NCBI RefSeq assembly: GCF_054482525.1
Contig: NZ_CM137006.1
Direction: 5' to 3' (one strand)
DNA length: 64,000 nucleotides
Of this stretch, positions 12,603-29,505 are shown in pieces. The translations under genes and the position numbers were made by a program. Within the stretch, counting starts at the first letter, position 1, and the number at the start of each line of letters is the position of its first letter. The notes beneath the pieces were generated by a model. It was not told the DNA's origin, did no database searches, and saw only the letters and a program-made list of their open reading frames with translations.

Positions 12603-13964
12603 GTGGAAAAAGAAAATATCACCCTCGATCCGCGTTCTTCATTTACTCCATCTTCGTCGGCAGATATTCCCGTGCCACCAGATGGATTAGTTCAACGCAG
12701 TACCCGAATTAAACGCATTCAAGCCACCGCCATGTTGTTATTATTTTTTGCGGCGGTAATCAATTATCTCGACCGCAGTTCGCTGTCGGTAGCAAATTTA
12801 ACGATTCGTGAAGAATTGGGATTAAGTGCCACCGAAATCGGCGCTTTGCTCTCCGTGTTTTCACTCGCTTACGGGATTGCGCAACTTCCTTGCGGCCCAC
12901 TATTGGATCGTAAAGGCCCACGCCTGATGCTGGGACTGGGGATGTTCTTCTGGTCACTGTTCCAGGCCATGTCTGGCATGGTGCACAGCTTTACGCAGTT
13001 CGTGTTGGTGCGTATCGGTATGGGGATTGGTGAAGCGCCGATGAACCCATGTGGCGTAAAAGTCATTAACGACTGGTTCAACATCAAAGAGCGCGGACGC
13101 CCGATGGGCTTCTTCAACGCAGCTTCTACCATTGGCGTAGCCGTAAGCCCACCGATTCTGGCAGCGATGATGCTGGTGATGGGCTGGCGCGGGATGTTTA
13201 TTACCATTGGTGTACTGGGGATTTTTCTCGCCATCGGCTGGTATATGCTCTATCGCAACCGCGAGCACGTAGAACTGACTGCCGTTGAACAAGCTTATCT
13301 CAATGCAGGTAGCGTCAATGCCCGCCGAGATCCGCTCAGTTTTGCCGAATGGCGCAGCCTGTTCCGTAACCGCACAATGTGGGGAATGATGCTCGGATTC
13401 AGTGGCATCAACTACACTGCGTGGCTGTATCTGGCCTGGCTTCCTGGTTACCTGCAAACAGCCTATAACCTGGATTTAAAAAGCACAGGGTTGATGGCGG
13501 CTATCCCTTTCCTGTTTGGGGCTGCCGGGATGCTGGTCAACGGTTACGTTACTGACTGGCTGGTCAAAGGGGGAATGGCTCCGATTAAAAGCCGTAAGAT
13601 CTGCATTATTGCCGGGATGTTCTGTTCTGCCGCCTTTACGCTGGTCGTACCGCAAGCGACAACATCCATGACGGCGGTTCTGCTGATTGGCATGGCACTG
13701 TTCTGTATTCACTTTGCCGGAACATCCTGCTGGGGCTTGATCCACGTCGCAGTTGCTTCTCGCATGACTGCATCGGTGGGCAGTATCCAGAACTTTGCCA
13801 GCTTCATCTGCGCCTCTTTTGCGCCGATCATTACTGGTTTTATTGTTGATACCACCCACTCATTCCGTCTGGCACTAATCATCTGCGGTTGCGTCACCGC
13901 GGCGGGTGCACTGGCGTACATCTTCCTGGTTCGTCAGCCGATCAACGACCCGCGTAAAGATTAA
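12603..13964 (+). CDS. lgoT: MFS transporter (L-galactonate:H+ symporter)
   Basis: 453 aa, 12-TM MFS pattern; GTG start. Confidence 0.85.
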   Translation: MEKENITLDPRSSFTPSSSADIPVPPDGLVQRSTRIKRIQATAMLLLFFAAVINYLDRSSLSVANLTIREELGLSATEIGALLSVFSLAYGIAQLPCGPLLDRKGPRLMLGLGMFFWSLFQAMSGMVHSFTQFVLVRIGMGIGEAPMNPCGVKVINDWFNIKERGRPMGFFNAASTIGVAVSPPILAAMMLVMGWRGMFITIGVLGIFLAIGWYMLYRNREHVELTAVEQAYLNAGSVNARRDPLSFAEWRSLFRNRTMWGMMLGFSGINYTAWLYLAWLPGYLQTAYNLDLKSTGLMAAIPFLFGAAGMLVNGYVTDWLVKGGMAPIKSRKICIIAGMFCSAAFTLVVPQATTSMTAVLLIGMALFCIHFAGTSCWGLIHVAVASRMTASVGSIQNFASFICASFAPIITGFIVDTTHSFRLALIICGCVTAAGALAYIFLVRQPINDPRKD

Positions 13965-13972
13965 TCTCCCTA

Positions 13973-14006
13973 TGCCCGATAACATTTTGCTTATCGGGCA
14001 TTTTTA
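13973..14006. terminator. bidirectional rho-independent terminator between convergent lgoT and tsr
   Basis: TGCCCGATAA-cattttgc-TTATCGGGCA followed by TTTTTA. Confidence 0.6.
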
Positions 14007-14012
14007 TGGCGA

Positions 14013-15668
14013 TTAAAACGTTTCCCAGTTCTCCTCGCTATCTGCCATGGCCATTTTACGCGGCGTAGCTGGCGTCACGGTTTTTACCACAGCCGATGTT
14101 TCACGCTGCTGTTGCTGAATCCGGAACACTGCCACAGCTTCGGTCAGGCGACTGGCCTGCTCTTCCAGCGCGGCGGCGGCAGCGGCAGATTCTTCCACCA
14201 GCGCAGCGTTCTGTTGAGTTACCCGGTCCATCTCAGCGACCGCTAAGCCAACCTGATCGATACCACGGCTCTGCTCATCAGAAGCAGAAGCTATTTCGCC
14301 CATAATGTCCGTCACGCGGGTCACAGCACTGACAATCTCCGCCATTGTTTCCCCGGCGCTTTCGACCAGCGTAGAGCCAACATCCACTTTCCCCACCGAG
14401 TCTTCAATCAGGCTTTTAATTTCACGAGCCGCCTGGGCGCTACGCTGGGCCAGATTACGCACTTCTCCCGCAACCACCGCAAAACCGCGCCCTTGCTCAC
14501 CCGCACGCGCAGCCTCAACCGCGGCGTTCAAAGCCAGAATATTGGTCTGGAAGGCAATGCCGTCAATTACGCTGATAATATCGGCGATTTTCTGCGAACT
14601 GGTGGAGATATCGCGCATGGTCTGCACCACGTTATCCACCACTTTGCCGCCGCGTTGCGCCGTTTCAGAAGCACTTAATGCCAGATGGCTGGCCTGGCGC
14701 GCATTCTCGGCGTTCTGTTTCACCGTTGCGGTCAGTTGCTCCATGCTGGCTGCCGTCTCTTCCAGCGAAGCGGCCTGTTGCTCGGTGCGCGAAGAGAGAT
14801 CGTTATTACCGGTGGCGATTTCGCTGGCACCGCTATAGATGGCATTGGCCCCGTTGCGCACATCACCGACGGTACGCATCAGCTCTCCCTGCATATGGCG
14901 CAAACTCTCTGCCAGTTGCCCCATCTCATTAGAGCCATCCACCTCAATCGGTTTCACCAGATCGCCGCCTGCAATATGACGAATGCTGTCAATCAGGCGA
15001 TTCATTGGCGCTACCAACGAGGCTTTAATACCGAACCAGACGGCGAAGATGACCGCCAGTACGACGATCATCACGCCCACCAGAATCCACATCGCCTGGC
15101 TGTAGGAGGCATTGTTATCGCTGACGGCGATATCATAGAGCCGATCGTTTTGCTCCATGTAAGCCACATACTGCTTCTCGAAAGCGTCCTGATATCCCTG
15201 GGTCGGCTGATCAAAGAACTCGTTGATTTTGCCTGCACCTAACAGTTGGATCAGCTCCGCCAGCGCATTGTGATAAATATCGTAATTACGTTTGATCTCT
15301 GACGCTGCGGCGGTGCTCTGACGCGGGTCACGCGGCAACGCTTCGTAATCCGCCCAGTTTTTTTCCGCCTGTTTCAGCGAAATACTGGCACTCTGCATCA
15401 GCTCAGCAACGGTTGAACCGCTACCAATATTATTCTGATCCATCATGTAGCGGATACCCGCGCGGTTGAGGGTGTTACGCGTCTGCAACAACGCAACCCA
15501 GCTGCCATTCAGCGTGGATTGCTGCTGGCGAATGGTTTGTAAAACAGTGAAATTTTCTTTGTCATTCTTTAAGGCATTAAAGAACAGACCGCCTGAAGTC
15601 AGTTGTAAAAGGCCAAAAACGGCCAAAACCAGCAGTAAGCTGGTCACAATTTTGATACGTTTTAACAT
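14013..15668 (-). CDS. tsr: methyl-accepting chemotaxis protein I (serine chemoreceptor)
   Basis: 551 aa; HAMP plus MCP signalling domain, methylation-site EEQ/QEE repeats, C-terminal NWETF pentapeptide. Confidence 0.95.
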
Positions 15669-15698
15669 GGTTTCTCTTTCCTGTGGACCGATGCAAGA

Positions 15699-15725
15699 TT
15701 TTCGGCCTGGAAAGCAAAAACTTTA
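15699..15725 (-). promoter_or_regulatory. sigma28 (FliA) promoter for tsr
   Basis: Minus strand reads TAAAGTTT-N11-GCCGAAAA versus consensus TAAAGTTT-N11-GCCGATAA, about 30 bp upstream of tsr ATG. Confidence 0.65.
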
Positions 15726-15786
15726 TGAAAAGGTGTAACCCGCCATCCATGGAAAAACCAGGCGCTGGTTATCAGATATTAAAAAG

Positions 15787-16233
15787 TTATTCATTATCGC
15801 CCGGGATGTCTTCTTGTCGGGAATTACCCAGAGCAATAAATTCCTCTAACAGATGGGTTAACTGTTGCATTTTCTCGGCAGTAAACTGAGCTTCAATCTG
15901 CCGATAGGCTTCTTCAATCTGTGTCTGAGCGCGGTTATACAGGGCCTGCCCCTCTTTGGTCAGCGAGATATAGAGCTTCCGCTGATCATTGATCGGCTTT
16001 AATCGCAACACTAAACCGTCGCGTTCCATCCGCGTGAGGATCCCGGTCAGGCTTGGGCGCAAAATGCAGGCGCGATACGCCAGATCGTGAAAATCCATTG
16101 ATGGGCTTTCCGCCAGAATACGCACGATGCGCCACTGTTGCTCTGTCAAATTATGCCGTTTAACGATTGGGCGAAAATAACTCATCGCCGCTTCTCGCGC
16201 CTGGAGCAACGCAATGGTTAGTGAGTCGTGCAT
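15787..16233 (-). CDS. hpaR: MarR-family repressor of homoprotocatechuate degradation
   Basis: 148 aa from MHDSLTIALLQ; MarR winged helix; divergent from hpaG. Confidence 0.85.
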   Translation of the reverse strand: MHDSLTIALLQAREAAMSYFRPIVKRHNLTEQQWRIVRILAESPSMDFHDLAYRACILRPSLTGILTRMERDGLVLRLKPINDQRKLYISLTKEGQALYNRAQTQIEEAYRQIEAQFTAEKMQQLTHLLEEFIALGNSRQEDIPGDNE

Positions 16234-16504
16234 TATCTTTCCCCTGAAAAATTCAAAATCATTAATATAGAAACAGTTAATCATCACGTTACCGGGACTG
16301 CGCTGCCCCTGCAATTCTTCATTTTATCAAAATTGAGCATGTTTTGTTAACTTACTGATATTTAATATTTTATTATCTTTAAATGTAAATAGTTTGTTAA
16401 TTAGATCACATTTACATCACTTACTTTTGCCAAACTACGCAATCGGGAATAAAAGTAATCATTAACATATTAATGATTAAGATGATCGAATCCGAGGAGT
16501 GGTA
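16234..16504. promoter_or_regulatory. divergent hpaR / hpaG promoter-operator region
   Basis: AT-rich 270-bp spacer between divergent starts; RBS GGAG before hpaG ATG; HpaR operators expected here (not individually resolved). Confidence 0.4.
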
Positions 16505-17794
16505 ATGAAAGGCACTATCTTCGCCGTAGCGTTGAACCATCGCAGCCAACTTGATGCATGGCAGGAAGCGTTCCAGCAATCCCCCTACAAAGCCCCGCCT
16601 AAAACTGCGGTCTGGTTTATTAAACCGCGCAATACGGTGATTGGTTGCGGTGAACCGATTCCCTTTCCACAGGGTGAAAAGGTACTGAGCGGTGCGACTG
16701 TTGCGCTGATTGTGGGAAAAACGGCGACGAAAGTACGTGAAGAAGATGCAGCAGAGTACATCGCCGGATATGCGCTGGCTAACGACGTCAGCCTGCCGGA
16801 AGAGAGCTTTTACCGCCCGGCAATCAAAGCAAAATGTCGTGATGGATTCTGCCCCATTGGCGAAACCGTGGCTCTCAGCAATGTCGATAATCTGACCATC
16901 TATACCGAGATCAACGGGCGTCCTGCCGATCACTGGAACACCGCCGATTTACAACGTAATGCCGCGCAGTTGCTGAGCGCTCTGAGCGAATTTGCCACGC
17001 TGAATCCAGGCGATGCCATTCTGCTCGGCACGCCACAGGCGCGCGTGGAAATACAGCCAGGCGATCGCGTTCGTGTTCTCGCTGAAGGTTTCCCGCCACT
17101 GGAAAATCCGGTAATGGACGAACGTGAAGTGACCACGCGCAAGAGCTTCCCAACGCAGCCACACCCGCACGGCACGCTGTTTGCCCTCGGCCTGAACTAC
17201 GCCGACCACGCCAGCGAACTGGAATTTAAGCCACCGGAAGAACCGCTGGTGTTCCTGAAAGCGCCGAATACCCTCACTGGCGATAACCAGACCTCCGTGC
17301 GCCCGAACAATATTGAATATATGCACTACGAAGCGGAGCTGGTGGTGGTGATTGGCAAGCAGGCGCGTAACGTCAGCGAAGCCGATGCTATGGATTATGT
17401 CGCGGGCTACACCGTGTGTAACGACTACGCCATTCGCGACTATCTGGAAAACTACTACCGCCCTAACCTGCGGGTAAAAAGCCGCGACGGACTGACGCCG
17501 ATGCTTTCAACCATCGTGCCGAAAGAGGCGATCCCGGACCCGCATAATCTGACCCTTCGCACCTTCGTCAACGGCGAGTTACGCCAGAAAGGCACCACCG
17601 CCGATCTGATCTTCAGCGTGCCCTTCCTGATCGCCTACTTAAGCGAATTTATGACCCTGAATCCGGGCGACATGATCGCCACCGGCACACCAAAAGGCTT
17701 ATCTGACGTGGTGCCTGGCGATGAAGTAGTAGTGGAAGTAGAAGGCGTGGGCCGCCTGGTGAACCGAATTGTGAGTGAGGAAACAGCGAAATGA
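16505..17794 (+). CDS. hpaG: bifunctional 5-oxopent-3-ene-1,2,5-tricarboxylate decarboxylase / 2-hydroxyhepta-2,4-diene-1,7-dioate isomerase (tandem FAH-fold)
   Basis: 429 aa; two homologous halves; first gene of meta-cleavage operon. Confidence 0.88.
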   Translation: MKGTIFAVALNHRSQLDAWQEAFQQSPYKAPPKTAVWFIKPRNTVIGCGEPIPFPQGEKVLSGATVALIVGKTATKVREEDAAEYIAGYALANDVSLPEESFYRPAIKAKCRDGFCPIGETVALSNVDNLTIYTEINGRPADHWNTADLQRNAAQLLSALSEFATLNPGDAILLGTPQARVEIQPGDRVRVLAEGFPPLENPVMDEREVTTRKSFPTQPHPHGTLFALGLNYADHASELEFKPPEEPLVFLKAPNTLTGDNQTSVRPNNIEYMHYEAELVVVIGKQARNVSEADAMDYVAGYTVCNDYAIRDYLENYYRPNLRVKSRDGLTPMLSTIVPKEAIPDPHNLTLRTFVNGELRQKGTTADLIFSVPFLIAYLSEFMTLNPGDMIATGTPKGLSDVVPGDEVVVEVEGVGRLVNRIVSEETAK

Positions 17795-19257
17795 AAAAAG
17801 TAAATCATTGGATCAACGGCAAAAATGTTGCAGGTAACGACTACTTCCAGACCACCAATCCGGCAACGGGTGAAGTGCTGGCGGATGTGGCCTCTGGCGG
17901 TGAAGCGGAGATCAATCAGGCGGTAGCGGCAGCGAAAGAGGCGTTCCCGAAATGGGCCAATCTGCCGATGAAAGAGCGTGCGCGCCTGATGCGCCGTCTG
18001 GGCGATCTGATCGACCAGAACGTGCCTGAGATCGCCGCGATGGAAACCGCGGACACGGGCCTGCCAATCCATCAGACCAAAAATGTGTTGATCCCACGCG
18101 CTTCTCACAACTTTGAATTTTTCGCGGAAGTCTGCCAGCAGATGAACGGCAAGACCTATCCGGTTGACGACAAGATGCTCAACTACACGCTGGTGCAACC
18201 GGTAGGCGTTTGTGCGCTGGTATCGCCGTGGAACGTGCCGTTTATGACCGCCACATGGAAGGTCGCGCCGTGTCTGGCGCTGGGCAATACCGCGGTGTTG
18301 AAAATGTCGGAACTCTCCCCGCTGACCGCTGACCGCCTGGGTGAGCTGGCGCTGGAAGCCGGTATTCCGGCGGGCGTGCTGAACGTGGTACAGGGCTACG
18401 GCGCAACCGCAGGCGATGCGCTGGTTCGTCATCATGACGTACGTGCCGTGTCGTTCACCGGCGGTACGGCCACCGGGCGCAACATCATGAAAAACGCCGG
18501 GCTGAAAAAATACTCCATGGAACTGGGCGGTAAATCGCCGGTGCTGATTTTTGAAGATGCCGATATTGAACGCGCGCTGGACGCTGCCCTGTTCACCATC
18601 TTCTCGATCAACGGCGAGCGCTGCACCGCCGGTTCGCGCATCTTTATTCAGCAAAGCATCTACCCGGAATTCGTTAAACGCTTTGCCGAACGCGCCAACC
18701 GTCTGCGCGTGGGCGATCCGAACGATCCGAATACCCAGGTTGGGGCGCTTATCAGCCAGCAACACTGGGAAAAAGTCTCCGGCTATATTCGTCTCGGCAT
18801 TGAAGAAGGCGCAACCCTGCTGGCGGGCGGTCCGGATAAACCGTCCGACCTGCCTGCGCACCTGAAAGGCGGCAACTTCCTGCGCCCAACGGTGCTGGCT
18901 GACGTTGATAACCGTATGCGCGTCGCCCAGGAAGAGATTTTCGGGCCGGTCGCCTGTCTGCTGCCGTTTAAAGACGAAGCCGAAGGCTTACGTCTGGCAA
19001 ACGACGTGGAGTACGGCCTCGCGTCGTACATCTGGACACAGGATGTCAGCAAAGTGTTACGCCTGGCGCGTGGCATTGAAGCAGGCATGGTGTTCGTCAA
19101 CACCCAGAACGTGCGTGACCTGCGCCAGCCATTTGGCGGCGTAAAAGCCTCCGGCACCGGGCGTGAAGGCGGTGAGTACAGCTTCGAAGTGTTCGCGGAA
19201 ATGAAGAACGTCTGCATTTCCATGGGCGACCATCCAATTCCGAAATGGGGAGTCTGA
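17791..19257 (+). CDS. hpaE: 5-carboxymethyl-2-hydroxymuconate semialdehyde dehydrogenase (NAD aldehyde dehydrogenase)
   Basis: 488 aa; aldehyde dehydrogenase active-site region; ATGA overlap with hpaG. Confidence 0.9.
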   Translation: MKKVNHWINGKNVAGNDYFQTTNPATGEVLADVASGGEAEINQAVAAAKEAFPKWANLPMKERARLMRRLGDLIDQNVPEIAAMETADTGLPIHQTKNVLIPRASHNFEFFAEVCQQMNGKTYPVDDKMLNYTLVQPVGVCALVSPWNVPFMTATWKVAPCLALGNTAVLKMSELSPLTADRLGELALEAGIPAGVLNVVQGYGATAGDALVRHHDVRAVSFTGGTATGRNIMKNAGLKKYSMELGGKSPVLIFEDADIERALDAALFTIFSINGERCTAGSRIFIQQSIYPEFVKRFAERANRLRVGDPNDPNTQVGALISQQHWEKVSGYIRLGIEEGATLLAGGPDKPSDLPAHLKGGNFLRPTVLADVDNRMRVAQEEIFGPVACLLPFKDEAEGLRLANDVEYGLASYIWTQDVSKVLRLARGIEAGMVFVNTQNVRDLRQPFGGVKASGTGREGGEYSFEVFAEMKNVCISMGDHPIPKWGV

Positions 19258-19258
19258 T

Positions 19259-20110
19259 ATGGGTAAGTTAGCGTTAGCCGCCAAGATCACGCACGTACCG
19301 TCGATGTATCTCTCTGAACTGCCAGGGAAAAACCACGGTTGCCGCCAGGGTGCGATTGACGGGCATAAAGAGATCAGCAAGCGTTGCCGGGAAATGGGCG
19401 TCGATACCATTATCGTTTTCGATACCCACTGGCTGGTCAACAGTGCTTATCACATCAACTGTGCAGACCATTTTGAAGGCGTCTACACCAGCAACGAGCT
19501 GCCGCATTTTATCCGCGATATGACCTACAACTACGAGGGCAACCCGGAGTTGGGGCAGCTTATTGCCGATGAAGCCTTAAAACTCGGCGTGCGGGCAAAA
19601 GCGCACAATATTCCCAGCCTGAAACTGGAATACGGCACGCTGGTGCCAATGCGCTACATGAATGAAGACAAGCACTTCAAAGTGGTCTCCATTTCGGCTT
19701 TCTGCACGGTTCACGATTTTGCCGACAGCCGCAAGCTTGGCGAAGCGATTGTGAAAGCGATCGAACAGTACGACGGCACCGTGGCGGTCCTTGCCAGCGG
19801 TTCGTTATCGCACCGCTTTATTGACGATCAGCGTGCGGAAGAAGGGATGAACAGCTACACCCGCGAGTTCGACCGCCAGATGGACGAGCGCGTGGTGAAG
19901 CTGTGGCGCGAAGGCCAGTTCAAAGAGTTCTGCAATATGCTGCCGGAGTACGCCGACTACTGCTACGGCGAAGGCAATATGCACGACACGGTGATGCTGC
20001 TGGGGATGCTCGGCTGGGATAAATACGACGGCAAGGTGGAGTTTATTACCGAGCTGTTCCCAAGCTCTGGCACTGGTCAGGTTAACGCTGTTTTCCCGCT
20101 TCCCGCGTAA
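19259..20110 (+). CDS. hpaD: 3,4-dihydroxyphenylacetate 2,3-dioxygenase (extradiol)
   Basis: 283 aa; starts 2 bp after hpaE stop. Confidence 0.88.
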   Translation: MGKLALAAKITHVPSMYLSELPGKNHGCRQGAIDGHKEISKRCREMGVDTIIVFDTHWLVNSAYHINCADHFEGVYTSNELPHFIRDMTYNYEGNPELGQLIADEALKLGVRAKAHNIPSLKLEYGTLVPMRYMNEDKHFKVVSISAFCTVHDFADSRKLGEAIVKAIEQYDGTVAVLASGSLSHRFIDDQRAEEGMNSYTREFDRQMDERVVKLWREGQFKEFCNMLPEYADYCYGEGNMHDTVMLLGMLGWDKYDGKVEFITELFPSSGTGQVNAVFPLPA

Positions 20111-20119
20111 GGAACCACC

Positions 20120-20500
20120 ATGCCGCACTTTATCGTGGAATGTACTGAAAATATTCGTCAAGAAGCCCGCTTACCTGAGCTGTTTGCCAGTGTTAACACC
20201 GCACTGGCGGCGACGGGGATTTTTCCGCTTGGGGGAATACGTAGCCGGGCGCACTGGATCGATACCTGGCAAATGGCCGATGGCAAGCACGATTACGCCT
20301 TTGTGCATATGACGCTAAAAATCGGCAGCGGGCGCAGTCTGGAAAGCCGTCAGGAAGTAGGTGAAATGCTGTTTGATCTGATTAAAACGCACTTCGCCTC
20401 ACTGATGGAGAGCCGTTACCTGGCGCTTTCATTTGAGATTGCAGAGCTGCACCCGACGTTGAATTTCAAACAGAACAACGTACACGCGTTGTTTAAATAA
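20120..20500 (+). CDS. hpaF: 5-carboxymethyl-2-hydroxymuconate isomerase
   Basis: 126 aa; N-terminal MPHFIVECT. Confidence 0.88.
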
Positions 20501-20567
20501 ATTTGCACCAGCTTCCAGGCCGGATGATAAGGCGCAGCCGCATCCGGCAATGCCACAGGATATCGCC

Positions 20568-21371
20568 ATGTTCGATAAACACACCCACACCCTGATCGCC
20601 CAGCGTCTGGATCAGGCAGAAAAACAGCGCGAACAGATCCGCGCGATCTCGCTGGATTACCCGGAGATCACCATCGAAGACGCTTACGCGGTGCAGCGTG
20701 AATGGGTTCGACTGAAAATCGCCGAAGGTCGCACGCTGAAAGGCCACAAAATCGGCCTGACCTCGAAAGCGATGCAGGCCAGCTCACAAATCAGCGAGCC
20801 GGATTACGGTGCCCTGCTGGATGACATGTTCTTCCACGATGGCAGCGATATCCCGACCGATCGCTTTATCGTGCCGCGCATTGAAGTGGAGCTGGCTTTC
20901 GTGCTGGCAAAACCGCTGCGTGGGCCAAACTGCACGCTGTTCGACGTTTACAACGCCACGGACTATGTGATCCCGGCGCTGGAGCTGATCGACGCTCGCT
21001 GCCACAACATCGATCCGGAAACCCAGCGCCCGCGTAAAGTGTTCGACACCATTTCTGATAACGCCGCCAATGCCGGGGTGATCCTCGGTGGTCGTCCGAT
21101 CAAACCTGACGAGCTGGATCTGCGTTGGATCTCCGCCCTCATGTATCGCAATGGCGTGATTGAAGAAACCGGCGTCGCCGCTGGTGTGCTGAATCATCCG
21201 GCAAACGGCGTGGCCTGGCTGGCGAACAAACTCGCACCGTATGACGTACAACTGGAAGCCGGGCAAATCATTCTCGGCGGTTCGTTCACCCGCCCGGTTC
21301 CGGCGCGTAAGGGCGACACCTTCCACGTCGATTACGGCAACATGGGTTCCATTAGCTGCCGCTTTGTTTAA
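20568..21371 (+). CDS. hpaH: 2-oxo-hept-4-ene-1,7-dioate hydratase
   Basis: 267 aa from MFDKHTH; FAH-fold hydratase. Confidence 0.88.
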
Positions 21372-21381
21372 GGAGAGAACG

Positions 21382-22170
21382 ATGGAAAACAGTTTTAAAG
21401 CGGCGCTGAAAGCAGGCCGCCCGCAGATCGGATTATGGCTGGGGCTAAGTAGCAGCTACAGCGCAGAGTTACTGGCCGGAGCAGGATTCGACTGGTTATT
21501 GATCGACGGTGAGCACGCGCCGAATAACGTGCAAACCGTGCTCACCCAACTACAGGCGATTGCGCCCTATCCCAGCCAGCCGGTAGTACGTCCGTCGTGG
21601 AACGATCCGGTGCAAATCAAACAACTGCTGGACGTCGGCACACAAACCTTACTGGTGCCGATGGTACAAAACGCCGACGAAGCCCGTGAAGCGGTACGCG
21701 CCACCCGTTATCCCCCCGCCGGTATTCGTGGTGTGGGCAGTGCGCTGGCCCGCGCCTCGCGCTGGAATCGTATTCCTGATTACCTGCAAAAAGCCAACGA
21801 TCAAATGTGCGTGCTGGTGCAGATCGAAACGCGTGAGGCAATGAAGAACCTACCGCAGATTCTGGACGTGGAAGGGGTAGACGGCGTGTTTATCGGCCCG
21901 GCGGATCTGAGCGCCGATATGGGTTATGCCGGTAATCCGCAGCACCCGGAAGTGCAGGCCGCCATTGAACAGGCGATCGTGCAAATCCGTGAAGCGGGCA
22001 AAGCGCCGGGGATCCTGATCGCCAATGAGCAACTGGCAAAACGCTACCTGGAACTGGGCGCGCTATTTGTCGCCGTCGGCGTTGACACCACCCTGCTCGC
22101 CCGCGCCGCCGAAGCGCTGGCAGCACGGTTTGGCGCGCAGGCTACAGCGATTAAGCCCGGCGTGTATTAA
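21382..22170 (+). CDS. hpaI: 4-hydroxy-2-oxo-heptane-1,7-dioate aldolase (class II, HpcH/HpaI)
   Basis: 262 aa from [29 protein letters not shown] upstream. Confidence 0.9.
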
Positions 22171-22250
22171 TGCCGGATGCGCTGCGCTTATCCGGCCTAC
22201 ACTCGCACCAAACCGTAGGCCGGATAAGGCGTTTACGCCGCATCCGCCAT
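22171..22250. repeat. pair of REP elements (BIME-like) between hpaI and hpaX
   Basis: TGCCGGATGCGCTGCGCTTATCCGGCCTAC and inverted GTAGGCCGGATAAGGCGTTTACGCCGCATCCGCC. Confidence 0.7.
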
Positions 22251-22293
22251 AAACCTTGTCGTACCCTACAAAAATCCCATTAGAGGAAGAAAA

Positions 22294-23670
22294 ATGAGCG
22301 ACACCTCACCTGCCATACCGGAAAGTATCGATCCGGCAAATCAGCATAAAACGCTGACTGCCGGACAACAGGCGGTTATTAAGAAGCTGTTTCGCCGCCT
22401 GATCGTCTTTCTGTTCGTGCTGTTTATCTTCTCGTTCCTTGATCGCATCAACATCGGCTTTGCCGGGCTCACGATGGGACGCGACCTCGGTCTGAGCGCC
22501 ACCATGTTTGGCCTCGCCACCACCCTGTTCTACGCCGCTTATGTCATCTTCGGCATTCCCAGCAACATTATGCTGAGTATTGTCGGTGCGCGGCGCTGGA
22601 TCGCCACCATCATGGTGCTTTGGGGCATCGCCTCTACGGTCACCATGTTTGCCACTGGCCCCACCAGCTTGTACGTACTGCGCATACTGGTTGGCATTAC
22701 CGAAGCCGGCTTTCTGCCTGGCATTCTGCTGTATTTAACCTTCTGGTTTCCGGCCTATTTCCGCGCCCGTGCCAACGCCTTGTTTATGGTAGCAATGCCG
22801 GTAACGACAGCGTTGGGATCGATCGTTTCCGGCTACATTTTGTCGCTGGATGGCGTAATGGCATTAAAAGGCTGGCAGTGGCTGTTTTTGCTGGAAGGCT
22901 TCCCGTCGGTATTACTCGGCGTCATGGTGTGGTTCTGGCTTGATGACTCACCGGACAAAGCTAAGTGGCTGACGAAAGAAGACAAAAAATGCCTGCAAGA
23001 GATGATGGATAACGATCGTCTGACGCTGGTTCAGCCAGAGGGAGCCATCAGCCACCACGCCATGCAACAACGCAGCATGTGGCGGGAGATCTTCACTCCG
23101 GTGGTGATGATGTATACCCTGGCGTATTTCTGCCTGACCAACACACTTAGTGCAATCAGCATCTGGACACCGCAGATCCTACAAAGCTTTAATCAGGGTA
23201 GCAGTAATATCACCATCGGCCTGCTGGCCGCCGTACCGCAGATTTGTACCATTCTCGGGATGATCTACTGGAGCCGTCACTCAGATCGCCGCCAGGAACG
23301 AAGGCATCACACCGCCCTTCCTTATTTGTTCGCTGCCGCTGGTTGGTTACTGGCTTCGGCAACTGATCACAACATGATCCAGATGCTGGGGATCATTATG
23401 GCTTCGACCGGATCATTCAGCGCAATGGCGATTTTCTGGACAACACCGGATCAGTCCATCAGCCTGCGGGCACGAGCGATCGGTATTGCGGTGATCAACG
23501 CCACTGGCAACATTGGTTCAGCATTAAGTCCGTTTATGATCGGCTGGTTGAAAGATCTGACCGGCAGCTTTAACAGTGGATTGTGGTTTGTTGCCGCGCT
23601 GCTGGTGATTGGTGCGGGGATTATCTGGGCGATTCCAATGCAGTCCTCCCGTCCGCGAGCGACCCCGTAA
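22294..23670 (+). CDS. hpaX: 4-hydroxyphenylacetate permease (MFS)
   Basis: 458 aa, 12-TM MFS. Confidence 0.88.
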   Translation: MSDTSPAIPESIDPANQHKTLTAGQQAVIKKLFRRLIVFLFVLFIFSFLDRINIGFAGLTMGRDLGLSATMFGLATTLFYAAYVIFGIPSNIMLSIVGARRWIATIMVLWGIASTVTMFATGPTSLYVLRILVGITEAGFLPGILLYLTFWFPAYFRARANALFMVAMPVTTALGSIVSGYILSLDGVMALKGWQWLFLLEGFPSVLLGVMVWFWLDDSPDKAKWLTKEDKKCLQEMMDNDRLTLVQPEGAISHHAMQQRSMWREIFTPVVMMYTLAYFCLTNTLSAISIWTPQILQSFNQGSSNITIGLLAAVPQICTILGMIYWSRHSDRRQERRHHTALPYLFAAAGWLLASATDHNMIQMLGIIMASTGSFSAMAIFWTTPDQSISLRARAIGIAVINATGNIGSALSPFMIGWLKDLTGSFNSGLWFVAALLVIGAGIIWAIPMQSSRPRATP

Positions 23671-23679
23671 GGAACGACG

Positions 23680-24570
23680 ATGTGTGACCGTCAGATTGCC
23701 AATATTGATATCAGCAAAGAGTACGATGAAAGCCTGGGTACTGACGATGTGCATTATCAGTCGTTCGCCCGCATGGCGGCATTTTTTGGCCGCCATATGC
23801 TGCCACATCGCCACGAACAGTACTTTCAGATGCATTTCCTCAATAGCGGACAGATTGAGCTACAGCTTGACGATCATCGCTACTCGGTGGAAGCGCCCCT
23901 GTTTGTCCTGACGCCACCGTCAGTACCTCATGCGTTTATTACGGAGTCTGACGCCGACGGTCATGTGTTGACGGTACGGGAAGATCTGATCTGGCCCCTG
24001 CTGGAAGTTCTTTATCCGGGCACTCGGGAAACCTTCGGCCTGCCGGGGATTTGCCTGTCACTGGCAGATAAACCCGACGAACTGGCGGCGCTGGAACACT
24101 ATTGGCAACTGATAGAGCGGGAATCGGTAGAACAACTGCCTGGACGGGAACACACCCTGACGCTACTGGCACAGGCAGTGTTCACCCTACTGCTGCGTAA
24201 CGCAAAACTCGACGACCATGCCGCCAGCGGGATGCGCGGAGAATTAAAACTGTTCCAACGTTTTCATATGCTGATTGAAAGCCATTTTCACCAGCACTGG
24301 ACAGTACCGGATTACGCTAACGAACTGCATATCACCGAATCACGACTCACGGACATCTGCCGTCGCTTTGCCAACCGTCCGCCAAAACGGTTGATTTTCG
24401 ACAGGCAGCTGCGAGAAGCCAAACGGCTGCTGCTGTTTTCTGATAACGCCGTGAACAATATTGCCTGGCAACTCGGTTTTAAGGATCCGGCTTATTTTGC
24501 CCGCTTTTTTAATCGCTTAGTCGGTTGCTCGCCCAGTGCTTATCGTGCCAAAAAAGTACCTGTGACGTGA
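23680..24570 (+). CDS. hpaA: AraC/XylS-family activator of hpaBC
   Basis: 296 aa; C-terminal AraC HTH (IAWQLGFKDPAYFARFFNRLVGCSPSAYR). Confidence 0.85.
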   Translation: MCDRQIANIDISKEYDESLGTDDVHYQSFARMAAFFGRHMLPHRHEQYFQMHFLNSGQIELQLDDHRYSVEAPLFVLTPPSVPHAFITESDADGHVLTVREDLIWPLLEVLYPGTRETFGLPGICLSLADKPDELAALEHYWQLIERESVEQLPGREHTLTLLAQAVFTLLLRNAKLDDHAASGMRGELKLFQRFHMLIESHFHQHWTVPDYANELHITESRLTDICRRFANRPPKRLIFDRQLREAKRLLLFSDNAVNNIAWQLGFKDPAYFARFFNRLVGCSPSAYRAKKVPVT

Positions 24571-24820
24571 AAATCCCTTAGCCTTAACGGGAAACCAGGC
24601 ACCACCTGCTATTCCCCTTTCTCCGCCTGGAGCAAGGGGATTTAGTAACGTTAAAAATCGTTAAAAGCGACCTCGATCACAAAACCGTACCCGACATGAA
24701 AAGTACCAGCCATTGTCCCAAAAGTGTCTTCCCGTAATCGCCCCTGCAAGCTTCAATTGAATAACAAAAACAACACACAAAATTAACAATCGTATTCCGA
24801 TTAATACTGTAGAGGTCGAC
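24571..24820 (+). promoter_or_regulatory. hpaBC promoter region (HpaA-dependent)
   Basis: 250-bp non-coding gap upstream of hpaB; individual sites not resolved. Confidence 0.35.
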
Positions 24821-26383
24821 ATGAAACCAGAAGATTTCCGCGCCAGTACCCAACGTCCGTTCACCGGGGAAGAGTATCTGAAAAGCCTGCAGGATGGTCG
24901 AGAGATCTATATCTATGGCGAGCGAGTGAAAGACGTCACCACTCATCCGGCATTTCGTAATGCGGCAGCGTCTGTTGCCCAACTGTACGACGCGCTACAC
25001 AAACCGGAGATGCAGGACTCTCTGTGTTGGAACACCGACACCGGCAGCGGCGGCTATACCCATAAATTCTTCCGCGTGGCGAAAAGTGCCGACGACCTGC
25101 GCCAGCAACGCGACGCCATCGCTGAGTGGTCACGCCTGAGCTATGGCTGGATGGGCCGTACCCCAGACTACAAAGCTGCTTTCGGTTGCGCACTGGGCGC
25201 GAATCCGGGCTTTTACGGTCAGTTCGAGCAGAACGCCCGTAACTGGTACACCCGTATTCAGGAAACTGGCCTCTACTTTAACCACGCGATTGTTAACCCA
25301 CCGATCGATCGTCATTTGCCGACCGATAAAGTAAAAGACGTTTACATCAAGCTGGAAAAAGAGACTGACGCCGGGATTATCGTCAGCGGTGCGAAAGTGG
25401 TTGCCACCAACTCGGCGCTGACTCACTACAACATGATTGGCTTCGGCTCGGCACAAGTGATGGGCGAAAACCCGGACTTCGCACTGATGTTCGTTGCGCC
25501 AATGGATGCCGATGGCGTGAAATTAATCTCCCGCGCCTCTTATGAGATGGTCGCGGGTGCTACCGGCTCGCCGTACGACTACCCGCTCTCCAGCCGCTTC
25601 GATGAGAACGATGCGATTCTGGTGATGGATAACGTGCTGATCCCATGGGAAAACGTGCTGATCTACCGCGATTTTGATCGCTGCCGTCGCTGGACGATGG
25701 AAGGCGGTTTCGCCCGTATGTATCCGCTGCAAGCCTGTGTGCGCCTGGCAGTGAAATTAGACTTCATTACGGCACTGCTGAAAAAATCACTCGAATGTAC
25801 CGGCACCCTGGAGTTCCGTGGCGTGCAGGCCGATCTCGGTGAAGTGGTGGCGTGGCGCAACACCTTCTGGGCATTGAGTGACTCGATGTGTTCAGAAGCA
25901 ACGCCGTGGGTCAACGGGGCTTATTTACCGGATCATGCCGCACTGCAAACCTATCGCGTACTGGCACCAATGGCCTACGCGAAGATCAAAAACATTATCG
26001 AACGCAACGTTACCAGTGGCCTGATCTATCTCCCTTCCAGTGCCCGTGACCTGAACAATCCGCAGATCGACCAGTATCTGGCGAAGTATGTGCGCGGTTC
26101 GAATGGTATGGATCACGTCCAGCGCATCAAGATCCTCAAACTGATGTGGGATGCCATTGGCAGCGAATTTGGTGGTCGTCACGAACTGTATGAAATCAAC
26201 TACTCCGGTAGCCAGGATGAGATTCGCCTGCAGTGTCTGCGCCAGGCACAAAGCTCCGGCAATATGGACAAGATGATGGCGATGGTTGATCGCTGCCTGT
26301 CGGAATACGACCAGAACGGCTGGACTGTGCCGCACCTGCACAACAACGACGATATCAACATGCTGGATAAGCTGCTGAAATAA
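24821..26383 (+). CDS. hpaB: 4-hydroxyphenylacetate 3-monooxygenase, oxygenase component
   Basis: 520 aa; two-component flavin-dependent monooxygenase large subunit. Confidence 0.93.
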   Translation: MKPEDFRASTQRPFTGEEYLKSLQDGREIYIYGERVKDVTTHPAFRNAAASVAQLYDALHKPEMQDSLCWNTDTGSGGYTHKFFRVAKSADDLRQQRDAIAEWSRLSYGWMGRTPDYKAAFGCALGANPGFYGQFEQNARNWYTRIQETGLYFNHAIVNPPIDRHLPTDKVKDVYIKLEKETDAGIIVSGAKVVATNSALTHYNMIGFGSAQVMGENPDFALMFVAPMDADGVKLISRASYEMVAGATGSPYDYPLSSRFDENDAILVMDNVLIPWENVLIYRDFDRCRRWTMEGGFARMYPLQACVRLAVKLDFITALLKKSLECTGTLEFRGVQADLGEVVAWRNTFWALSDSMCSEATPWVNGAYLPDHAALQTYRVLAPMAYAKIKNIIERNVTSGLIYLPSSARDLNNPQIDQYLAKYVRGSNGMDHVQRIKILKLMWDAIGSEFGGRHELYEINYSGSQDEIRLQCLRQAQSSGNMDKMMAMVDRCLSEYDQNGWTVPHLHNNDDINMLDKLLK

Positions 26384-26400
26384 CGCAGCAGGAGGTTAAG

Positions 26401-26913
26401 ATGCAATTAGATGAACAACGCCTGCGCTTTCGTGACGCAATGGCCAGCCTGTCGGCAGCGGTAAATATTATCACCACCGAGGGCAACGCCGGGCAATGCG
26501 GGATTACGGCAACGGCTGTCTGCTCGGTCACGGATACACCACCGTCGCTGATGGTGTGCATTAACGCCAACAGTGCGATGAACCCGGTTTTTCAGGGCAA
26601 CGGTAAGTTGTGCGTCAACGTCCTCAACCATGAGCAGGAACTGATGGCACGCCACTTCGCGGGCATGACAGGCATGGCGATGGAAGAGCGTTTTAGCCTC
26701 TCATGCTGGCAAAAAGGTCCGCTGGCGCAGCCGGTGCTAAAAGGTTCGCTGGCCAGTCTTGAAGGTGAGATCCGCGATGTGCAGGCAATTGGCACACATC
26801 TGGTGTATCTGGTGGAGATTAAAAACATCATCCTCAGTGCAGAAGGTCACGGACTTATCTACTTTAAACGCCGTTTCCATCCGGTGATGCTGGAAATGGA
26901 AGCTGCGATTTAA
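26401..26913 (+). CDS. hpaC: 4-hydroxyphenylacetate 3-monooxygenase, NADH:flavin reductase component
   Basis: 170 aa flavin reductase; RBS GGAGG before ATG. Confidence 0.9.
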   Translation: MQLDEQRLRFRDAMASLSAAVNIITTEGNAGQCGITATAVCSVTDTPPSLMVCINANSAMNPVFQGNGKLCVNVLNHEQELMARHFAGMTGMAMEERFSLSCWQKGPLAQPVLKGSLASLEGEIRDVQAIGTHLVYLVEIKNIILSAEGHGLIYFKRRFHPVMLEMEAAI

Positions 26914-26919
26914 GCTCCA

Positions 26920-26955
26920 GCCCCTTCACGTATTCGTCGAAGGGGCATTTTTATT
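26920..26955 (+). terminator. rho-independent terminator after hpaC
   Basis: GCCCCTTC-loop-GAAGGGGC followed by ATTTTTATT. Confidence 0.65.
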
Positions 26956-26970
26956 GTGATCTCAATCACA
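26955..26970. promoter_or_regulatory. CRP-binding site candidate (TGTGA-N6-TCACA)
   Basis: Perfect TGTGAtctcaaTCACA; about 335 bp upstream of btsT start. Confidence 0.45.
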
Positions 26971-27305
26971 TATCCACCCGATGAATAATTCTTGCCCAAC
27001 CGCTCACCGCCATTCCTGACCGCTTACATCCCTAAAATAACCACTCAGTTATTTACCTTACTTTATGCGCGCGTAACTCTGGCAACATCACTGCAGGATA
27101 GCGGTCAATTTACCTCCTCAAACGCAACGCAAACCTAGAACGGCTTCGGCCTATGATTAACAAATTACTCTATGGATTTTGGTTTGCAGGAAGGCAGCAA
27201 GTGAGTGAATCCCCGGGAGCTTACAACAGTAAGTGACAGGGGTGAACGAACGCAGCTGCCGCACCTGTAAGCCAAAAGACGACGAGTAAAATGCCAGGTT
27301 TTACT

Positions 27306-29456
27306 ATGGATACGAAAAAACTATTCAAGCACATACCCTGGGTGATTCTCGGAATCATCGGTGCATTCTGCCTCGCGGTAGTTGCATTACGTCGGGGGGA
27401 GCACGTCAGCGCCCTGTGGATCGTGGTCGCCTCTGTGTCGGTGTATCTGGTGGCTTATCGCTACTACAGTCTGTACATCGCCCAGAAGGTGATGAAACTC
27501 GACCCCACGCGCGCGACGCCTGCGGTTATTAACAACGACGGTCTGAACTACGTTCCGACCAACCGTTACGTGTTGTTTGGTCACCACTTCGCCGCTATCG
27601 CCGGTGCTGGTCCGCTGGTTGGACCGGTTCTCGCCGCGCAGATGGGCTACCTGCCTGGCACGCTGTGGCTGCTGGCGGGGGTCGTGCTGGCCGGTGCGGT
27701 TCAGGACTTTATGGTGCTGTTTATCTCCTCTCGCCGTAACGGCGCATCTCTCGGTGAGATGATCAAAGAAGAGATGGGACCAGTACCGGGGACTATCGCG
27801 CTGTTTGGCTGTTTCTTAATCATGATCATCATCCTCGCCGTCCTGGCGCTGATTGTGGTTAAAGCCCTGGCCGAAAGTCCGTGGGGTGTCTTCACCGTTT
27901 GCTCAACCGTACCGATTGCGCTGTTTATGGGTATCTACATGCGCTTTATCCGTCCGGGGCGTGTGGGTGAAGTCTCTGTCATTGGTATCGTGCTGCTGGT
28001 TGCCTCTATCTACTTCGGTGGCGTGATTGCTCACGATCCGTACTGGGGTCCGGCACTGACCTTTAAAGACACCACCATTACCTTCGCGCTGATTGGCTAT
28101 GCGTTTGTTTCCGCACTGCTGCCGGTGTGGCTGATCCTCGCACCGCGCGACTATCTGGCAACCTTCCTGAAAATCGGTGTTATCGTCGGCCTGGCGCTGG
28201 GTATCGTGGTGCTGAACCCGGAACTGAAAATGCCTGCGATGACCCAGTACATTGACGGTACTGGCCCGCTGTGGAAAGGCGCTCTGTTCCCGTTCCTGTT
28301 CATCACCATCGCCTGTGGTGCGGTATCTGGCTTCCACGCACTGATCTCTTCCGGTACGACACCGAAACTGCTGGCTAATGAAACCGACGCGCGTTTCATT
28401 GGCTACGGCGCAATGCTGATGGAGTCCTTCGTGGCGATTATGGCGCTGGTTGCTGCGTCCATCATCGAACCGGGTCTTTACTTCGCGATGAACACCCCGC
28501 CTGCTGGCCTCGGCATCACCATGCCTAACCTGCATGAAATGGGTGGCGAGAACGCGCCGATCATCATGGCGCAGCTGAAAGACGTTACCGCACACGCGGC
28601 AGCGACCGTCAGCTCCTGGGGCTTCGTGATTTCGCCAGAGCAGATCCTGCAAACCGCGAAAGACATTGGTGAGCCTTCTGTCCTGAACCGTGCAGGTGGT
28701 GCGCCGACGCTGGCGGTAGGTATCGCTCACGTGTTCCACAAAGTGCTGCCGATGGCTGACATGGGCTTCTGGTATCACTTCGGTATTCTGTTCGAAGCCC
28801 TGTTCATCCTGACCGCGCTGGATGCGGGTACCCGTTCTGGCCGCTTTATGCTGCAAGACCTGCTGGGTAACTTTATCCCGTTCCTGAAAAAAACCGACTC
28901 TCTGGTTGCTGGTATCATCGGTACTGCGGGCTGTGTGGGTCTGTGGGGCTACCTGCTGTATCAGGGCGTGGTCGATCCGCTGGGCGGCGTTAAGAGCCTG
29001 TGGCCGCTGTTCGGTATCTCCAACCAGATGCTGGCAGCCGTGGCGCTGGTACTGGGTACCGTTGTGCTGATTAAGATGAAGCGCACCCAATACATCTGGG
29101 TAACTGTTGTTCCGGCTGTATGGCTGCTTATCTGCACCACCTGGGCGCTGGGCCTGAAACTGTTCAGCACCAACCCGCAGATGGAAGGCTTCTTCTACAT
29201 GGCAAGCCAGTACAAAGAGAAGATTGCTAACGGTACTGACCTGACGGCGCAGCAGATTGCCAACATGAACCACATCGTTGTGAACAACTACACCAACGCA
29301 GGCCTGAGTATTCTGTTCCTGATTGTGGTGTACAGCATCATCTTCTACGGTTTCAAAACCTGGCTTGCGGTGCGTAACAGCGACAAACGTACTGACAAAG
29401 AAACACCGTACGTTCCAATCCCGGAAGGCGGCGTGAAGATCTCTTCGCACCACTAA
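27306..29456 (+). CDS. btsT: CstA-family pyruvate/H+ symporter
   Basis: 716 aa from MDTKKLFKHIPW; polytopic membrane protein (yjiY). Confidence 0.9.
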   Translation: MDTKKLFKHIPWVILGIIGAFCLAVVALRRGEHVSALWIVVASVSVYLVAYRYYSLYIAQKVMKLDPTRATPAVINNDGLNYVPTNRYVLFGHHFAAIAGAGPLVGPVLAAQMGYLPGTLWLLAGVVLAGAVQDFMVLFISSRRNGASLGEMIKEEMGPVPGTIALFGCFLIMIIILAVLALIVVKALAESPWGVFTVCSTVPIALFMGIYMRFIRPGRVGEVSVIGIVLLVASIYFGGVIAHDPYWGPALTFKDTTITFALIGYAFVSALLPVWLILAPRDYLATFLKIGVIVGLALGIVVLNPELKMPAMTQYIDGTGPLWKGALFPFLFITIACGAVSGFHALISSGTTPKLLANETDARFIGYGAMLMESFVAIMALVAASIIEPGLYFAMNTPPAGLGITMPNLHEMGGENAPIIMAQLKDVTAHAAATVSSWGFVISPEQILQTAKDIGEPSVLNRAGGAPTLAVGIAHVFHKVLPMADMGFWYHFGILFEALFILTALDAGTRSGRFMLQDLLGNFIPFLKKTDSLVAGIIGTAGCVGLWGYLLYQGVVDPLGGVKSLWPLFGISNQMLAAVALVLGTVVLIKMKRTQYIWVTVVPAVWLLICTTWALGLKLFSTNPQMEGFFYMASQYKEKIANGTDLTAQQIANMNHIVVNNYTNAGLSILFLIVVYSIIFYGFKTWLAVRNSDKRTDKETPYVPIPEGGVKISSHH

Positions 29457-29465
29457 CCGTGTTTA

Positions 29466-29492
29466 GCCCCGCTTCGGCGGGGCTTTGTTCTT
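29466..29492 (+). terminator. rho-independent terminator after btsT
   Basis: GCCCCGC-ttcg-GCGGGGC then TTTGTTCTT. Confidence 0.7.
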
Positions 29493-29505
29493 ATCAGAGT
29501 GAACT

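Follow-up and report, generated by a model that had tools for sequence, protein, structure and literature searches.

The subject of this analysis is the interval between tsr and btsT in a 64,000-nucleotide window of Escherichia coli DNA (NCBI RefSeq assembly GCF_054482525.1, contig NZ_CM137006.1), where an 11.2-kb cluster of hpa genes for 4-hydroxyphenylacetate (4-HPA) catabolism separates the serine chemoreceptor gene tsr from the pyruvate/H+ symporter gene btsT (yjiY). The cluster has probably long resided, essentially by vertical inheritance, at a multi-allelic replacement site between these two core genes. An original prediction, made from the letters of the window, had described it as an insertion into the divergent tsr/btsT promoter region of a K-12-like genome. 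Positions 14000-29500 of the window are 100% identical to E. coli PCN033 (NZ_CP006632.1), and the annotation of that record likewise places the hpa genes between tsr and btsT. From its gene content the cluster is recognizable as the well-known homoprotocatechuate pathway of the E. coli W/B/C type, whose map position, absence from K-12 and proposed loss are already published; being textbook E. coli aromatic catabolism, the cluster and its loss matter little as an observation in themselves. The modest additions made here are the multi-allelic, promoter-bounded nature of the site and an hpa-linked repeat element in the inferred btsT leader.

Junctions of the variable segment were defined by aligning the window with the K-12 derivative J53 and with an O157-type strain, whose tsr-btsT intergenic region spans 1063 bp and includes a hypothetical 180-aa open reading frame (ORF). 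In K-12 derivatives tsr and btsT proved to be directly divergent, as predicted, with 377 bp between them. All three sequences are collinear from tsr to 15726-15729, just outside the −35 box of the sigma-28 promoter of tsr, and are unrelated beyond that point; alignability resumes at the CRP box of btsT, with near-identity from approximately 27000 on. The strain-variable segment in this alignment runs from ~15727/15730 to 26954, or ~11.2 kb for the hpa allele. The predicted insertion (15726-27305) was thus correctly placed at its left edge (15726-15729) and extended too far on the right, where variable DNA stops at 26954 and positions 26955-27305 are conserved btsT promoter and leader. The sigma-28 promoter (TAAAGTTT-N11-GCCGAAAA, minus strand, 15699-15725) lies exactly where it had been predicted and is the sole match in the window (0 expected), agreeing with the consensus TAAAGTTT-N11-GCCGATAA at 15 of 16 bases with an 11-nt spacer. 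It is kept in 11 genera or species, and its −35 box is the last part common to all alleles; the first base of the CRP box is the first to be common again.

Between these two edges K-12 carries 88 bp of filler that is not significantly similar to the left or the right end of the hpa segment (Smith-Waterman scores no better than those of shuffled sequences). The 777-bp O157 filler scored equally low against the hpa ends, in a comparison run without a shuffle control. Because the K-12 filler is a sequence of its own, unrelated to the hpa ends, the hpa and K-12 states are better described as alternative replacements than as an insertion and an empty site. A simple deletion scar in K-12 was rejected on the same scores, the filler not being a diverged remnant of the hpa ends.

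Across 5426 complete E. coli genomes, the segment from the tsr −35 box to the btsT CRP box occurs as at least four unrelated alleles. The hpa allele was found in 2063 genomes, the K-12-type short allele with the 88-bp filler in 2752, the O157-type filler with its orphan ORF in 363, and a hydroxyproline-catabolism island abutting the CRP box was seen in one (MB50). A variant of the short allele with 90-95% identity accounted for 712 of 3119 matching genomes. Integration or replacement hotspots between core genes are a general concept in E. coli comparative genomics, and the tsr-btsT site resembles them in that, depending on strain and species, the space between one pair of core genes is occupied by one of several unrelated cassettes. 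It differs from them in its lack of tRNA, integrase, phage or insertion sequence, in carrying ordinary catabolic operons as cargo, and in having promoter elements as its edges. It offers a clean case of multi-allelic replacement at a site where promoter elements, and not a mobile element, set the edges.

No integrase, transposase or other mobility gene was found in or beside the segment, all of whose ORFs are hpa genes. No tRNA gene occurs in 10000-32000, and the two junctions share no repeat of at least 8 nt, so that the predicted absence of flanking mobile-element genes and of a target duplication held in the annotation, tRNA and junction-repeat checks alike. Base composition is flat across the region (GC contents of 54.3% for the hpa segment, 54.1% for tsr and 56.2% for btsT). 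Between PCN033 and three other hpa-positive strains, identity is 96-99% for the hpa genes, and tsr and btsT show the same range. Within the cluster, hpaF (20120-20500) exists as two deep alleles in E. coli, one with 81-83% and the other with 99% identity to the window, a split that suggests internal allelic replacement. Together, the shared identity range and the two hpaF alleles fit long residence with internal recombination rather than recent arrival.

For the wider family, BtsT was used to scan one genome per bacterial species, and the window proteins were mapped onto the resulting 80 loci. In 16 of these, from six genera besides Escherichia, the genes from hpaE to hpaC immediately precede btsT, with order and orientation unchanged (Raoultella 4, Klebsiella 3, Citrobacter 3, Enterobacter 3, Pseudocitrobacter 2, Lelliottia 1). 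The full arrangement of tsr(−), hpaR(−), hpaGEDFHIXABC(+) and btsT(+) is present in Enterobacter asburiae and Citrobacter sp. 18056, with dnaT-dnaC-opgB beyond tsr, while Klebsiella michiganensis has genes other than tsr in the place of tsr. Third-codon identity to the window in the same genomes was 48-68% for hpa genes and 61-71% for btsT; this about equal divergence indicates that the cluster diverged together with its core neighbor. The possibility, raised with the original prediction, that the cluster is ancestral rather than inserted is essentially what synteny and co-divergence with btsT revealed, the arrangement being ancestral or ancient. Two types of hpaX, with 70-73% and 80-83% identity, were observed among the other genera.

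A long-resident hpa cluster at such a site could have come about as follows. The stretch from the tsr −35 box to the btsT CRP box is the only one free of regulatory sequence, and unrelated cassettes (hpa, the short filler, the orphan ORF and the hydroxyproline island) alternate there. Homologous recombination in the conserved flanks tsr and btsT may then carry alleles from one lineage to another, and a swap of this kind would explain why no integrase, tRNA or target duplication is seen. The sharp boundaries would result not from a mechanism of insertion but from purifying selection, acting on the outermost promoter elements. At the tsr-btsT loci of other genera that lack hpa, only the sigma-28 promoter, the CRP box, the BtsR boxes, the core promoter and the ribosome-binding region are conserved, and the 70-95-bp spacer between their −35 and CRP boxes is unalignable.

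Several points weigh against such a history. In Pseudocitrobacter, hpaE-hpaI have 70-90% third-codon identity to E. coli whereas its btsT has 67-68%, an exception suggesting that some hpa DNA was later exchanged horizontally. Adjacency of tsr and btsT without hpa is widespread (many Citrobacter, Salmonella arizonae and diarizonae, Kosakonia, Phytobacter and others), so the family may ancestrally have been with or without hpa at this site. The genus-level history is drawn from only three non-coli Escherichia genomes, and the shuffling of alleles through the flanks is something that we infer.

The reading behind the original prediction, in which hpa is a horizontally acquired island inserted in a K-12-like tsr/btsT region and disturbing the upstream control of btsT, could draw on the absence of the cluster from about 60% of E. 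coli genomes, on its position exactly between two divergent promoters, and on Pseudocitrobacter, which shows that hpa DNA can move between genera. It is nevertheless largely refuted, and we consider it very improbable: there is no K-12-like empty site, the 88-bp filler being absent from the hpa allele as well as unrelated to it; the mobility genes, tRNA, repeats and GC deviation of an island are missing; and Enterobacter and Citrobacter share the arrangement, their hpa genes being as diverged at silent sites as btsT. The sites for CRP and BtsR upstream of btsT are moreover intact and are the same ones used by K-12, and one Escherichia genome retains a trace of former hpa occupancy.

In that genome, Escherichia sp. 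MOD1-EC7003, only the final ~113 bp of hpaC are left; TRAP-transporter genes are joined to them on one side, and on the other come the terminator and the CRP box. By its structure this hpaC remnant is a deletion scar, marking a place where hpa formerly stood. The scar supports the classical view, which PMC7201708 cites from Diaz et al. 2001, that hpa is ancestral and was simply deleted by K-12, and family-wide synteny, co-divergence and a GC content like that of the flanks speak for it as well. The hpa-less allele is, however, not specific to K-12: its presence in 2752 genomes, including the 90-95% identity variant, and also in E. albertii means that any deletion predates E. coli. In addition, the 88-bp filler holds no remnant of hpaR or hpaC, and short tsr-btsT spacers of similar size occur in many other genera. 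A simple deletion is a serious candidate, although we lean slightly against it. The loss of hpa from K-12 suggested in PMC7201708, again with reference to Diaz et al. 2001, is directionally compatible with the comparisons made here; a loss, if there was one, would not be K-12-specific and appears to have left no recognizable scar.

Other Escherichia species bear on the age of the alleles. E. albertii has a K-12-type filler, roughly 85% identical to that of K-12 by eye in the alignment, and in Escherichia sp. E1V33 the hydroxyproline island ends one base into the CRP box, changing its first T to C. With the short allele in E. albertii and the hpaC scar in MOD1-EC7003, both the hpa and the short alleles are older than E. 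coli. One explanation would be a balanced trans-species polymorphism, with both alleles kept since before the Escherichia species split and hydroxyphenylacetate use paying only in some gut niches. Consistent with this, both alleles occur in more than one Escherichia species and at intermediate frequency in E. coli, the spacer between the CRP and BtsR boxes (26971-26998) has deeply diverged, allele-specific haplotypes, and growth on 3-hydroxyphenylacetate (3-HPA) follows phylogroup (PMC12444784). Interspecies recombination could mimic the pattern, however, and we regard balancing selection as possible but rather unlikely. E. albertii NBRC 107761 (locus L010), compared with window positions 5077-29447, is 85-87% identical on the tsr side and 97.4% identical on the btsT side from ~27000, where its repeat element in the btsT leader is identical. 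This step suggests interspecies gene flow with a breakpoint at the tsr-btsT site, and for the history favored here, in which hpa is an old occupant of a replacement site, it gives a hint of allele movement through flank recombination. The tsr gene of this strain has a large internal deletion, and btsT is 98-99% identical in two other Escherichia species.

The btsT gene keeps its full native control region, comprising CRP box, BtsR boxes and core promoter. The CRP box (TGTGATCTCAATCACA, 26955-26970) was found at exactly the predicted position, and no other perfect TGTGA-N6-TCACA occurs in the window (0.05 expected). It is a native btsT element, with counterparts in K-12 (TGTGATATGAATCACA) and O157 (TGTGATCATCATCACA) and conservation across genera. 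Downstream, 26996-27052 (plus strand) aligns to the K-12 "yjiY YehT bs" oligonucleotide (PMC4847170) and is the BtsR (YehT) binding region, containing the boxes ACCGCTCA (26999-27006), ACCGCTTA (27019-27026) and ACCACTCA (27040-27047), conserved in K-12, O157 and other genera. This comparison mostly answers the question, raised with the original prediction, of an effect on btsT regulation; the possibility that btsT elements are retained downstream of 27000 was essentially borne out, with the BtsR boxes beyond that point and the CRP box before it, at 26955-26970. Relative to the K-12 tsr-btsT region, the window shares the tsr sigma-28 promoter and, on the btsT side, the CRP and BtsR boxes, the core promoter and the ribosome-binding region. 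It differs in having 11.2 kb in place of 88 bp of unrelated filler, a different haplotype from the CRP box to the BtsR boxes, and a 125-bp element of the enterobacterial repetitive intergenic consensus (ERIC) type that K-12 lacks.

Immediately upstream, the predicted terminator of hpaC was recovered by folding as an intrinsic terminator with a hairpin at 26920-26946 and a T-run to 26954 (plus strand, dG −19.1 kcal/mol, z −6.5). A simple promoter and terminator consensus scan of 26880-27320 returned no matches, a loop limit or intolerance of bulges being the likely reason that it missed this hairpin. In K-12, btsT depends on CRP, BtsS/BtsR and CsrA (PMC7730263, PMC5431176), and its expression is abolished in a crp mutant (PMC7730263). 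Given the strong hpaC terminator just upstream and the native btsT control region, the presence of hpa would be expected to change btsT transcription little.

A feature that the original prediction had not mentioned lies between the btsT promoter and the ribosome-binding site: a 125-bp imperfect palindrome of the ERIC or intergenic repeat unit (IRU) type in the inferred 5' leader of btsT (27165-27289, plus strand), which has 26-nt terminal inverted arms and folds into a hairpin of −61.7 kcal/mol (z −7.1). ERIC or IRU elements are imperfect palindromes of ~126-127 bp in Enterobacteriaceae, and the element resembles them in its length, its long imperfect hairpin, its dispersed intergenic copies and its presence/absence polymorphism at individual sites. 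By eye its core agrees at 39 of 44 positions with what we take to be the 44-nt ERIC consensus, for which a search of the window at up to 3 mismatches gave no matches; Rfam returned one weak sub-threshold match, to V_AS5. The repeat was detected in 5425 of the 5426 E. coli genomes at a median of 9 places per genome (range 2-15), and none of the 8 places listed overlapped an annotated feature. An 8-mer, CTATGGAT, occurs both at the left end of the element (27170-27177) and across the btsT start codon (27304-27311).

At the btsT site the element is present in 2062 of the E. coli genomes and absent from the K-12 and O157 alleles, and it accompanies the hpaC end in 2059 of the 2063 hpa-positive genomes. 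This linkage is nearly complete in E. coli, as would be expected of two sites 200 bp apart. It is not obligatory, since E. albertii and E1V33 carry the element without hpa, and two hpa-positive genomes (GCA_013812875.1 and GCA_013886335.1) have no ERIC-type element. Strain comparisons of btsT regulation should take into account that K-12 differs from hpa-positive strains, such as B, W and many commensals, both in the promoter-proximal haplotype and in the 125-bp hairpin of the leader. Among the hpa-linked differences, the hairpin is most likely to be the one that matters, and the post-transcriptional control of btsT by CsrA (PMC5431176, PMC7730263) means that a leader hairpin could have an effect. 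In the library searched, no paper mentioned ERIC together with btsT or yjiY. A more far-reaching proposal combines these elements: the spacer would be a family-wide cassette-exchange site with ancient trans-species polymorphism, and the hpa-linked hairpin would alter BtsT synthesis, perhaps by affecting how stable the mRNA is or how accessible it is to CsrA. This combination is unlikely to hold in full; if the hairpin did alter BtsT synthesis, hpa-positive and hpa-negative E. coli would differ in pyruvate scavenging too.

Gene calls were taken from the RefSeq annotation of the PCN033 record and from NCBIfam equivalog models, with each hpa product above the curated cut-off. All 11 hpa genes (R, G, E, D, F, H, I, X, A, B and C) are intact and the annotation contains no pseudogenes, in agreement with the predicted complete pathway with a transporter and two regulators. 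The canonical layout, with hpaR divergent from hpaGEDFHI and followed on the other side by hpaX, hpaA and hpaBC, is kept here and was also found in other E. coli strains and in other genera. In the pathway, HpaBC hydroxylates 4-HPA to homoprotocatechuate, HpaD cleaves the ring, and HpaE, F, G, H and I turn the cleavage product into pyruvate and succinic semialdehyde. Uptake of the substrate is by HpaX, and control is exerted by HpaR, the repressor of the meta-cleavage operon, and by HpaA, the activator of hpaBC. The cluster of E. coli W was reportedly described by Prieto, Diaz and Garcia in J Bacteriol in 1996 and reviewed by Diaz et al. in MMBR in 2001. It has the same 11 genes in the same order and orientation and, like the present one, belongs to a type absent from K-12 and present in B, C and W; differences from it are at strain level only, PCN033 having one of the two deep hpaF alleles and a shorter repeat block between hpaI and hpaX. 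In size, too, the clusters agree, at about 11.1 kb; the hpa region of B strains measures 11,127 bp (PMC7201708). Growth on 3- or 4-hydroxyphenylacetate is documented for B, C, W and phylogroup C strains (PMC7201708, PMC12444784), and among avian isolates hpaB follows phylogroups, being present in C, A and B1 and absent in B2 and G (PMC12444784).

On the left flank, tsr (14013-15668, minus strand) is annotated in RefSeq and matched the NCBIfam equivalog PRK15041 with 1211 bits. The MarR-type repressor gene hpaR (15787-16233, minus strand; RefSeq) matched TIGR02337; a candidate hpaR terminator at 15735-15790 (minus strand) was rejected, its fold being no better than that of shuffled sequence (z −0.8). 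The homoprotocatechuate meta-cleavage operon hpaGEDFHI occupies 16505-22170 on the plus strand (PRK15203, TIGR02299, TIGR02298, PRK15031, TIGR02312 and TIGR02311), with hpaG at 16505-17794, hpaE at 17791-19257, hpaD at 19259-20110, hpaF at the position given above, hpaH at 20568-21371 and hpaI at 21382-22170. It is followed on the same strand by the 4-HPA permease gene hpaX of the major facilitator superfamily (MFS; 22294-23670; TIGR02332 equivalog), the AraC-family activator gene hpaA (23680-24570; TIGR02297 equivalog) and the two-component 4-HPA 3-monooxygenase genes hpaBC (24821-26913; TIGR02310 and PRK15486 equivalogs), with hpaB at 24821-26383 and hpaC at 26401-26913. On the right flank, btsT (27306-29456, plus strand) was identified by RefSeq and a CstA-family NCBIfam match.

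The spacer between hpaI and hpaX contains, at 22171-22250 as predicted, an inverted pair of repetitive extragenic palindromes (REP), i.e., a bacterial interspersed mosaic element (BIME), with a folding energy of −43.7 kcal/mol (z −6.5) and, in Rfam, a match below threshold to the REP-derived naRNA4. This block is only partly covered in other hpa-positive strains, and its length is strain-variable, the spacer (22171-22293) measuring 123 bp here and 174 bp in PSS-12, BS15R-A and strain 54.

The remaining observations concern the contents of other alleles and neighboring sites. The orphan 180-aa ORF of the O157-type allele (locus L003, 1907-2449) fills the tsr-btsT gap of 363 genomes, mostly O157:H7. 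It matched no Pfam or NCBIfam family and had only a marginal PADLOC match to an orphan methyltransferase (E 9e-4); by eye it contains a D...E-x-K nuclease-like motif. The hydroxyproline island, found at the same site in E. coli MB50 (locus L096, 1-11851) and Escherichia sp. E1V33 (locus L008, 1-9650), encodes a 4-hydroxyproline epimerase, FAD oxidoreductases, a DHDPS-family enzyme, an aldehyde dehydrogenase, an APC permease and an AraC regulator. A Mu-like prophage inside hpaA truncates the cluster of E. coli 2015C-4944 (locus L007, 18096-26096), whose hpaG is frameshifted.

The two hpa-positive genomes without the ERIC-type element, GCA_013812875.1 (L089) and GCA_013886335.1 (L090), have a tsr only 80% identical to that of the window. 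Both have five genes between tsr and hpaR, encoding an SIS regulator, an SSF transporter, RidA, an amidohydrolase and a D-Ser-dehydratase-like protein, and the latter genome also has a metallo-beta-lactamase-fold gene (Pfam Anti-Pycsar_Apyc1 match) between hpaA and hpaB. A second variable site lies at the other side of tsr, where the MFS transporter gene lgoT is present in the window (12603-13964) and in locus L005; its place is taken by a TRAP dctPQM transporter in JA0072, 2015C-4944 and Escherichia sp. MOD1-EC7003.

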